4,397 bases of DNA from a virus (IMGVR_UViG_2778261591_000014); one strand, 5' to 3'; positions 335 to 1,392 are shown, counted from the stretch's first letter. The notes: generated by a model from the sequence alone, not told the origin. Translations and numbers: made by a program.

Positions 335-739
335 TCACTTATTACTGTTCGTTTCCATGGGATTGGCCAAGAAATCAAAATAAGGCAGAGTGAACCTACC
401 AAGGTTTGACATGAGGATAATTTGCTCGGCATATGTTTTTATATAGGGATATGCCATATTGGGAGCAATGGACCTTACCTCATATGATTTTGCCATTTCA
501 TGAGAAAAATCATCTTCTGACCGGAAGTCAAAGTCGTATGTGATGTCCATCTCAAGCCTGCCTTCAATAGTTACGGAGGCAAAATATCTCACTCTAAATA
601 GCTTTGAATCCTTCACATTAGTGTAAAGTTCATTATTTAGATTAACGGTTGTTTTTATGGCTTTTTTTGCTGTTGAATCGCCTTCTAGCCGTGTCATAAC
701 CAAGCGTTCAACTTTTTTGCTAATGAGTTCAATTTTCAT
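335..739 (-). CDS. SecB-like dedicated chaperone (candidate third component of a TAC module), 134 aa
   Basis: ORF start overlaps the upstream antitoxin stop by 4 nt (736-739). The C-terminal half (APNMAYPYIKTYAEQIILMSNLGRFTLPYFDF) resembles the conserved E. coli SecB segment ([36 protein letters not shown]), with the P-N and P-Y positions aligned. Assignment rests on recalled sequence, not a profile search. Confidence 0.5.
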   Translation of the reverse strand: MKIELISKKVERLVMTRLEGDSTAKKAIKTTVNLNNELYTNVKDSKLFRVRYFASVTIEGRLEMDITYDFDFRSEDDFSHEMAKSYEVRSIAPNMAYPYIKTYAEQIILMSNLGRFTLPYFDFLANPMETNSNK

Positions 740-1392
740 GGTAATAATAAGTAATTTCCGTCAGAAGTCATTTCGTCATTCAGGTTGCTAGCCGCTGTGA
801 AACTTGATGACAAGTTACTTATCAAAGAAAAAACATTCCGTTTTTCTTTGCATTTGCCATTACCCCTTACTGCGCTGAACAACATTTTTGAAAAGTAAGA
901 TTCTGTAGCCTTTTCAGCGAAATAAGCAGAAGGTGATGTGACGGCTGACTCACACCGAGCAATGACGCTAGTCATGGCTGTTTCTTCTTCCTCTGCGTCA
1001 ACTAGGCTCCATTCAATTGCGCTCATATCTTGAATTAAGATATCTGCAGGAATTCCAAGTCCGTCATGTAGTCTACGGATCATTGAAAGACTTAATGGAC
1101 GCTTACGATTTAAGACCTCAGATACTTTAGATGCTGAGCCAATGTATTGTTTCATATCGGCATAAGAGAGGCCTTGTTGATCCATACGGAACTTGATTGC
1201 TTCTATGGGATCTGGCTTGTCCATAGGGAACTCGCGTGACTCATAGTGCTCGATAAGCAAGCCTAGTAGTTCAAACTCATCAAAATCTTCAGTTCCAGGT
1301 TGTAAATCACTAGACGCAAGTTCAATGAGCCTTTCCATAGCTGCAGCATGCTCTTCACTATTTTTAATGATGCGCCAGCTAGTTCGATTCAT
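736..1392 (-). CDS. higA: HigA-family HTH antitoxin with an unusual ~95-aa C-terminal extension, 218 aa
   Basis: Residues ~60-123 (EAIKFRMDQQGLSYADMKQYIGSASKVSEVLNRKRPLSLSMIRRLHDGLGIPADILIQD) align closely with the HTH region of E. coli HigA (AVIRTLMDQYGLTLSDLPEIGSKSMVSRVLSGKRKLTLEHAKKLATRFGISPALFID). E. coli HigA ends there; this ORF continues ~95 aa. Start overlaps the higB stop (ATGA at 1389-1392). Confidence 0.75.
   Translation of the reverse strand: MNRTSWRIIKNSEEHAAAMERLIELASSDLQPGTEDFDEFELLGLLIEHYESREFPMDKPDPIEAIKFRMDQQGLSYADMKQYIGSASKVSEVLNRKRPLSLSMIRRLHDGLGIPADILIQDMSAIEWSLVDAEEEETAMTSVIARCESAVTSPSAYFAEKATESYFSKMLFSAVRGNGKCKEKRNVFSLISNLSSSFTAASNLNDEMTSDGNYLLLP

Follow-up and report, generated by a model that had tools for sequence, protein, structure and literature searches.

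The window analysed here, a stretch of 4397 bases of viral DNA (IMGVR_UViG_2778261591_000014), carries at positions 335-1676 what is very probably a toxin-antitoxin-chaperone (TAC) operon of a lambdoid, Stx-converting prophage, an allele of the anti-phage HigBAC system of Escherichia coli NT1F31, in which positions 739-1029 encode the chaperone-addiction tail (ChAD) of the antitoxin HigA. The ChAD tail of HigA is already known; it was published in 2024 for the NT1F31 system (Mets et al. 2024, bioRxiv 10.1101/2024.02.24.581848).

Operon layout and near-identity with HigBAC of E. coli NT1F31

The window comprises a lambdoid immunity and replication region, with the following features.

307..326, minus strand: intrinsic terminator right after the higC stop codon, with a 7-bp stem containing 6 GC pairs, followed by TTTCTTT
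335..739, minus strand: higC, 134 aa, predicted SecB-like TAC chaperone, with an ATG that overlaps the stop codon of higA (ATGA)
736-1392, minus strand: higA, whole ORF, 218 aa, stop codon at 736-738
739..1029, minus strand: higA residues 122-218, the ChAD tail, 97 aa
751..753, minus strand: codon of Y214, anchor 4, located 4 residues before the C-terminus
829..831, minus strand: codon of F188, anchor 3, within the hydrophobic beta-prone patch 187-193
919..921, minus strand: codon of F158, anchor 2, 30 residues past W128
1009..1011, minus strand: codon of W128, anchor 1, in the motif IEWS, with the acidic patch D132-E137 next to it at 982-999
1030..1392, minus strand: higA residues 1-121, canonical antitoxin domain (all-helical, HTH)
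1389..1676, minus strand: higB toxin gene, 95 aa (Pfam HigB_toxin, E 4.5e-30; PADLOC PD-Lambda-2_A, E 2.5e-42)
1689..1730, minus strand: upstream of higB, two TTCCC-N5-GGGAA palindromes around a TATAAT box (1703-1708)
1813..2517, minus strand: cI-type repressor (Pfam Peptidase_S24), annotated cI in BP-4795
2631-2864, plus strand: cro-like gene
3003-3299, plus strand: cII (Pfam Phage_CII, 1e-31)
3332-4270, plus strand: replication gene O (Phage_rep_O, 4e-35)
past O, plus strand: P, start only

The genes higB, higA and higC lie directly downstream of cI, in the slot held by rexAB in lambda. They are tightly packed on the minus strand in the order toxin, antitoxin, chaperone, and both junctions are formed by ATGA overlaps. 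The product of higB belongs to the RelE-like family of ribosome-dependent mRNases. The palindromes and the TATAAT box at 1689..1730 probably represent an autoregulated promoter with HigA operators; the TTCCC-N5-GGGAA arrangement is kept upstream of higB in the TAC loci L003-L005 and in the two-gene loci L007 and L008. At the other end of the operon, the intrinsic terminator falls inside the region designated 'native HigBAC terminator' by Mets et al., whose primer matches positions 296-315. Searches against NCBIfam give zero matches for HigB, HigA or HigC, and no RNA family is found when the complete window is scanned with Rfam.

HigBAC of E. coli NT1F31 resides in a lambdoid prophage, downstream of cI where lambda has rexAB (10.1101/2024.02.24.581848). 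In that system HigA is a protein of 218 aa with a ChAD at residues 122-218, the aromatic anchors W128, F158, F188 and Y214, and a Leu-Pro end, and the pocket residues of HigC are Y39, N41, R49 and D71 (10.1101/2024.02.24.581848). All eight named residues, the length of 218 aa and the Leu-Pro end are identical in the window. At the nucleotide level, window positions 1826-1428 agree with the NT1F31 TAC fragment (Dataset S1) at 391 of 399 nucleotides (~98%), and higB agrees with the NT1F31 toxin gene at 287 of 288 nucleotides, the one change being I31R. The primers used for W128A, F158A and F188A in HigA, for N41A, R49A and D71A in HigC, and for the gene ends are exact outside the engineered codons. 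Across higA and higC, 23 primers or primer segments are exact or differ only at the engineered codons; two have one extra substitution each. A substitution at window position 839 makes residue 185 a Gln in NT1F31 (HigA R185Q), and a single-base mismatch at position 1060 is present in primers prTM0022 and prTM0090; primer oKE91, the 3' end of which is vector sequence, did not map. The amino-acid differences in the compared sequence are HigB I31R and HigA R185Q, in addition to a few intergenic changes, the comparison covering the first 399 nucleotides, the toxin gene and the primers, so that identity has been sampled within the central parts of higA and higC. RefSeq accessions of the window proteins are absent from the supplement of Mets et al.

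The matching residues, length and terminus, together with the DNA fragment and the primers, identify the cassette in the window as an allele of NT1F31 HigBAC. The two operons have the gene order, the place downstream of cI and the named HigA and HigC residues in common, and their differences are allelic only. By analogy, the window allele presumably behaves like the NT1F31 allele. The 2024 report on the latter is said to have appeared later in Cell Host & Microbe.

Function of the HigA tail in NT1F31

In NT1F31, HigBA alone is toxic, full-length HigA being unable to neutralise HigB, and growth is restored by co-expression of HigC (10.1101/2024.02.24.581848). Upon deletion of residues 122-218, HigA neutralises HigB without HigC. 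Exchange of one or two anchors for alanine is tolerated, the triple change W128A/F158A/Y214A abolishes rescue by HigC, and the quadruple anchor mutant of HigA is stable without HigC (10.1101/2024.02.24.581848). The triple and quadruple mutants imply that the aromatics jointly supply the destabilising and the HigC-binding functions of the tail. In ITC experiments a peptide comprising residues 121-148 binds HigC with a KD of 1.3 µM, and W128A abolishes this binding; on the side of the chaperone, R49A leads to loss of rescue (10.1101/2024.02.24.581848).

Concerning the fate of the unprotected tail, a fusion of mNeonGreen to the ChAD is stabilised 5-fold by HigC and shows no visible aggregates, and NT1F31 HigA that lacks protection is undetectable by immunoblot (10.1101/2024.02.24.581848). 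The stabilisation of the reporter without aggregates points to proteolysis, by a protease other than ClpXP, Lon or HslVU. In the preliminary description the tail had been called aggregation-prone. The protection of the tail by the chaperone holds, but the published data favour protection from proteolysis over visible aggregation, so that the term is only partly apt.

An alternative explanation for these properties is that the tail is mainly a classical C-terminal degron for ClpXP (or Lon), of which the chaperone just masks the last residues. HigA1 from Mycobacterium tuberculosis, with a Val-Ala end, and CmdA, with an Ala-Ala end, are both ClpXP substrates, and the disappearance of unprotected HigA and the aggregate-free reporter are what proteolysis would produce. 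However, the HigA of the window terminates in Leu-Leu-Pro, and thus in neither Ala-Ala nor Val-Ala, NT1F31 HigBA does not lose its toxicity when clpP, clpX, lon or clpPX lon hslVU are mutated (10.1101/2024.02.24.581848), and the instability depends on the four internal aromatics instead of the terminus. A classical degron is, on this evidence, an improbable account of the tail.

Boundary, disorder and aromatic anchors of the tail

The N-terminal part of HigA is a predicted all-helical domain, with seven helices in residues 1-120 and pLDDT values of 87-96 in an AlphaFold2 model based on a 43-sequence alignment. Pfam HTH_3 gives a weak match to residues 67-118. Residues 53-118/119 align to the E. 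coli HigA structures 5ifg_B and 5ycl_A (138 aa each, E 5e-5), with chain positions 71-135 being covered in 5ifg_B and the alignments reaching positions 133-135 of 138. Since the alignment stops ~3 residues short of the end of 5ifg_B, the E. coli HigA terminus corresponds to approximately residue 121 of the query. This is close to the earlier estimate, which had let the HigA-like homology end near residue 123, at the E. coli HigA terminus. The extension of ~95 aa that had been noticed past the HTH domain is found to measure 96-97 aa, as positions 739..1026 correspond to residues 123-218 (96 aa), and it is missing from two-gene homologues. The sequence strings quoted for it are all present in HigA: the acidic run DAEEEE occupies residues 132-137 and is followed by SAYFAEKATESYFSKMLFSAV and SSSFTAASNL.

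Among the best 120 of the 7807 matches obtained in a HigA homologue search, two length classes can be distinguished, one of 122-137 aa without a tail and one of ~190-230 aa with a tail. The short HigA proteins of two-gene systems show 60-66% identity over the first 118-122 residues and end 1-12 residues past the conserved 'ILIQD'; a counterpart of the tail is absent from them. The tails of the long homologues start almost universally with an [ED]W motif and fall into two classes, of ~67-73 aa with three anchors and of ~90-105 aa with four.

Residues 121-218 have pLDDT values of 36-57 and zero secondary structure in the AlphaFold2 model, and Pfam gives no match to the tail. The ChAD tail is thus predicted to be intrinsically disordered, which was the outcome of the disorder check suggested in the preliminary description. 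Short hydrophobic, beta-prone patches at residues 126-131, 140-146, 168-174, 187-193 and 214-218 alternate with polar and charged linkers, among them an acidic run at 132-137 and a basic one at 176-186. The acidic run after W128 resembles the acidic patch of lambda gpV.

Apart from the spaced aromatics, the tail sequences are hypervariable. The spacing was analysed in a set of 33 diverged tails that are less than 30% alike, with 2000 shuffles as a control. An aromatic residue at +27 to +30 past the Trp is present in 24 of the 33 tails (10.3 expected from the shuffle mean), and an aromatic 3-4 residues before the C-terminus in 27 of the 33 (5.6 expected), values that are attained by 0 of the 2000 shuffles; as the shuffle control leaves out the shared ancestry of the tails, these figures are descriptive and are not probabilities. 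The alignment with other extended HigA proteins that had been proposed earlier therefore shows diverged tails to have retained the [ED]W start and the aromatic positions, and the conserved spacing is consistent with a spaced-anchor model.

These properties also bear on the possibility that the tail is a self-folding domain whose function has nothing to do with the chaperone, such as an enzyme or a sensor similar to the PD-lambda-2 peptidase. The N-terminus of HigA does match the PADLOC profile PD-Lambda-2_B (E 3.8e-50), a profile of 402 positions with a peptidase as its C-terminal part, and such a peptidase fusion implies that the HigA scaffold is able to carry other C-terminal modules. The match is limited, however, to profile positions 3-125, and an independent domain is at odds with the zero Pfam matches in the tail, with the low pLDDT and lack of secondary structure at residues 121-218 despite the 43-sequence alignment, and with the hypervariability of the tails outside their aromatics. 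The predicted disorder and the missing family match are taken to rule out the independently folded domain that the preliminary description had itself considered, and this reading is very improbable. A frameshift or read-through that joined non-coding or out-of-frame sequence onto a short HigA, weakly hinted at by a few truncated database homologues (P0013, 164 aa; P0020, 144 aa) and likewise considered at the outset as an annotation artefact, can practically be dismissed, given that 88 of 5426 complete E. coli genomes and 30 Stx-phage records contain the 1.4-kb cassette with its ORF at 100% identity, that Klebsiella, Salmonella, Serratia and further genera have full-length homologues of 218-229 aa with 50-94% identity, tail included, that the higA stop and the higC start overlap in ATGA, that the anchor positions are conserved, and that the published tail mutants of NT1F31 have phenotypes.

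The ChAD reading, which had been put forward in the preliminary description, is supported by the near-identity with NT1F31, the phenotype of the 122-218 deletion, the predicted disorder and the co-occurrence with HigC described below. It had been suspected as well that the tail is longer than characterised extensions and holds more than a minimal recognition segment. Both suspicions prove justified: earlier characterised ChADs comprise 30-45 aa (Bordes 2016), compared to 96-97 aa in the window, and the NT1F31 tail has four aromatic anchors in place of one minimal site. According to the published explanation, the unusual length of this ChAD reflects an anchor number of four instead of one or two.

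HigC, related systems and Shiga-toxin-converting prophages

Sequence searches with HigC against Pfam (including SecB) and NCBIfam, with phmmer against the PDB, and with a 20-sequence profile against the PDB do not return any significant match. The AlphaFold2 model of HigC (pLDDT 86.9, pTM 0.80) consists of four long strands and one long helix. A Foldseek search with this model yields as top matches the chains of 5mtw (E 5e-7, TM 0.73-0.75, rmsd 2.5 Å), which is the SecB-like chaperone Rv1957 of M. tuberculosis with bound HigA1 ChAD peptide. The next matches are E. coli and Haemophilus influenzae SecB, and the overall TM range is 0.65-0.77. In addition, the PADLOC CmdC profile PD-T4-9_C matches HigC over its full length (E 3.2e-11). 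On the basis of the predicted structure and the PADLOC profile, HigC is assigned as a SecB-like chaperone, and the SecB fold and CmdC profile match of the third gene give the cassette the anatomy of a TAC system. The product of 335..739 had been proposed from the start as the SecB-like partner of the tail, a proposal with which the best match of the model, the M. tuberculosis TAC chaperone with its ChAD peptide, and the CmdC profile agree. The pocket residues Y39, N41, R49 and D71 are present in the window, and N41, R49 and D71 are invariant among homologues.

The presence of a tail and that of HigC coincide in a small sample of six loci. A HigC homologue is found downstream in three of three loci with long-tailed HigA proteins (192, 210 and 220 aa), with E values of 1e-38 to 1e-42 for a HigC profile; these loci have very different tails and are all located downstream of a cI-like repressor. 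In none of the three short-HigA loci checked is a higC gene present. Two of these short HigA proteins (131-132 aa) belong to plain two-gene higBA pairs, and the third (128 aa, Serratia symbiotica) to an apparently decayed cassette. The window accordingly displays the features by which TAC systems are classified, i.e., co-oriented and linked genes, a type II TA family, a tail on the antitoxin with predicted disorder, a SecB-like third gene, and co-occurrence of the latter two.

In the mechanism proposed for the operon, the disordered 97-residue ChAD would destabilise HigA unless it is held by tetrameric SecB-like HigC. The four anchors W128, F158, F188 and Y214, ~30 residues apart, would each occupy one of the equivalent pockets of the four HigC subunits, as in the AlphaFold-Multimer model of the NT1F31 proteins (10.1101/2024.02.24.581848), and one anchor in each of four pockets would amount to multivalent binding (avidity). 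With its tail held by HigC, HigA would neutralise the HigB mRNase. NT1F31 HigBAC protects from both lambda vir and Bas25, and it is triggered by the nascent lambda tail protein gpV, which competes with the ChAD for HigC (10.1101/2024.02.24.581848). The contacts of gpV involve W36 and W67, at a spacing of 30 residues, and an acidic patch, and the evidence for the competition comprises an S54P escape mutant, a pulldown, ITC competition and HDX-MS (10.1101/2024.02.24.581848). An infecting lambda-like phage would make gpV as its major tail protein, and nascent gpV, by its similar aromatic-plus-acidic pattern, would compete for HigC. When HigC is drawn off in this way, HigA would be lost and HigB would stop translation, by which infection would be restricted.

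Several known systems resemble the one in the window. The TAC system Rv1955-Rv1956-Rv1957 of M. tuberculosis (HigB1-HigA1-SecB-TA; Bordes 2016, Guillet 2019; PDB entry 5mtw) likewise contains a HigB toxin, a HigA with a disordered ChAD, and a SecB-like chaperone. In its ChAD too, aromatics mediate recognition, and W108 and W137 are 29 residues apart, near the 30-residue spacing in the window. In contrast, this ChAD consists of 45 aa with two repeats, compared to 97 aa with four anchors, and HigA1 has a ClpXP degron with a Val-Ala end, whereas the window HigA has a Leu-Pro end and the NT1F31 allele is ClpXP-independent. The two chaperones are 16-17% identical in a structural alignment. CmdTAC (PD-T4-9; Vassallo 2022, Mets 2024) is an anti-phage TAC system of prophages and mobile elements, of which CmdC provides the closest profile to the window HigC. 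It differs in having an mRNA ADP-ribosyltransferase as toxin, an unrelated antitoxin, an Ala-Ala ClpXP-dependent ChAD, and T-even phages as target. PD-lambda-2 (Vassallo 2022) has the HigB-like toxin and the HigA N-terminal domain in common with the window and also defends against lambda, but its HigA-like domain is fused to a C-terminal peptidase and its third gene is P4-antitoxin-like. Two-gene chromosomal higBA systems (E. coli K-12 HigBA; loci L007 and L008) have in common with the window the toxin, the N-terminal domain of the antitoxin and the TTCCC-N5-GGGAA pair upstream of higB, and differ by the lack of a tail and of a chaperone gene. Lambda RexAB, which excludes superinfecting phages, has, like HigBAC, its place in the moron slot downstream of cI, with unrelated proteins and an unrelated mechanism.

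Three class assignments were tried for the window and rejected. A canonical two-gene type II HigBA is not compatible with the presence of the tail and the chaperone gene. Membership of PD-lambda-2 is contradicted by a match that covers only positions 3-125 of the 402 profile positions and by the SecB fold of the third gene. A ChAD of the ClpXP-degron type would have a C-terminal Ala-Ala or Val-Ala in place of the Leu-Leu-Pro of the window.

The exact window allele is found in both Stx1a and Stx2 phages, and the exact cassette is widespread in the Shiga-toxin-converting prophages of EHEC (O26:H11, O157:H7 86-24, BP-4795). Neither Stx nor Shiga-toxin phages are mentioned in the main text of Mets et al. 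(10.1101/2024.02.24.581848). A tblastn search (E<=0.01) does not find a homologue of lambda gpV in BP-4795, ST2-8624 (bases 20000-62822 of the record), Stx1_JNE122398 or Stx1a_11KH263. Tentatively, and with some doubt, Stx1a and Stx2 prophages of EHEC may use the HigBAC in their rexAB slot as a sensor for excluding superinfecting lambda-type siphophages with a gpV tail tube, and the tail classes with three and four anchors may set differing avidity thresholds and hence the trigger sensitivity or specificity of the chaperone sensor. If HigBAC acts in such superinfection exclusion, the carrier phages would escape self-triggering, because the gpV homologue is missing from the four carriers checked. 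The ideas of Stx-prophage exclusion and of tuning by tail class do not occur in the bioRxiv version's main text (Mets et al.).

The current annotation of the proteins in RefSeq NC_013361.1 labels HigC as 'hypothetical protein' and HigA as 'helix-turn-helix domain-containing protein', both of which can be corrected. Because an essentially identical allele already had its mechanism described in 2024, the present analysis does not add anything new on the ChAD itself. Its additions concern how widespread the cassette is among Stx prophages, the conservation of the anchor spacing and of the aromatic near the C-terminus across very divergent tails, and the RefSeq labels. For the biology of the system, the ChAD makes a toxin-antitoxin pair dependent on a chaperone, and by this dependence the chaperone comes to sense a phage tail protein.

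Occurrence of the cassette in Shiga-toxin-converting phages

Exact copies of the higBAC cassette (window 300-1700) are present in 30 phage records. Among 5426 complete E. coli genomes, 88 contain it, O26:H11 11368 and O157:H7 86-24 being two of these. The carriers of the exact cassette are Shiga-toxin-converting phages and prophages, among them the following records.

NC_013361.1
AJ556162, phage BP-4795
KU238070, phage ST2-8624
22 records of Stx1a-converting phages

The main text of the paper describing HigBAC (Mets et al. 2024, bioRxiv 10.1101/2024.02.24.581848) does not mention Stx or Shiga, and in the RefSeq record NC_013361.1 HigC is labelled 'hypothetical protein' and HigA 'helix-turn-helix domain-containing protein'.

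The same paper identifies the lambda major tail protein gpV as a trigger of HigBAC. No homologue of gpV was detected (tblastn, E<=0.01) in the four HigBAC-carrying Stx phages searched, i.e., BP-4795, ST2-8624 (bases 20000-62822 of the record), Stx1_JNE122398 and Stx1a_11KH263. Three of these four carriers possess another major tail protein, of the BP-4795 ORF64 type; ST2-8624 is classified in the Sepvirinae. Homologues of gpV are present in 17 records of other Stx phages in the collection. The negative search result for the four carriers is consistent with a cassette that is not triggered by its own phage upon induction.

Sequence elements flanking the cassette

Two palindromes of the form TTCCC-N5-GGGAA, spaced 27 bp apart, lie upstream of higB, with a TATAAT box (1703-1708) between them.

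1689-1730, (-) strand: paired TTCCC-N5-GGGAA palindromes and TATAAT box, between the cI stop and the higB start
~3681-3802: a motif with an inverted repeat (TCCCTCAAAACGAGGGA and its variants), present several times inside gene O

Judged from the sequence, the elements at 1689-1730 probably serve as operator for HigA and as an autoregulated promoter. The palindrome pair also occurs upstream of higB in the toxin-antitoxin-chaperone loci L003 and L004, with a single copy in L005, and the two-gene higBA loci L007 and L008 contain one and both copies, respectively. This arrangement is probably a trait of the HigA N-terminal domain family, independent of the tail.

The gene O repeats are as expected for the iterons of a lambda-type origin. 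On the other side, left of higC (window 1-334; 5145-6035 of L001), the only annotation in the RefSeq record of O26:H11 11368 is a 69-nt 'regulator, incomplete' pseudogene, whereas BP-4795 carries N at the corresponding place (7865-8314 of its record).

Variation in the HigA C-terminus

A second class of tailed HigA proteins comprises ~189-198 residues in total, with a tail of ~67-73 residues counted after the first tryptophan.

Shorter-tailed homologues: P0024, P0046, P0049, P0051, P0057, P0062, P0068-P0072

Their aromatic residues are located at positions 0 and +27. Many of these proteins have another at or near the C-terminus, which gives three anchors as opposed to four. In P0049 (locus L003), the one member checked, a HigC homologue still follows. 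A difference in wrapping geometry or in avidity may underlie the shorter, three-anchor tail.

An even shorter HigA, of 128 residues and terminating directly past 'ILIQD', is encoded in Serratia symbiotica.

FR904233.1, 2291-3164: short-HigA locus, downstream of a cI-like repressor

A 62-residue ORF precedes this HigA at the expected position of higB, and no HigC homologue was found after it; the locus looks like a decayed toxin-antitoxin-chaperone cassette in an endosymbiont genome.

HigA residues 5-127 (window 1030-1392) match the PADLOC profile PD-Lambda-2_B (E 3.8e-50), but only at positions 3-125 of its 402; the rest of the profile, in PD-lambda-2 a peptidase domain, lies outside the match. 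A common HigB/HigA core is thus joined to varied C-terminal modules and third genes across anti-lambda systems.
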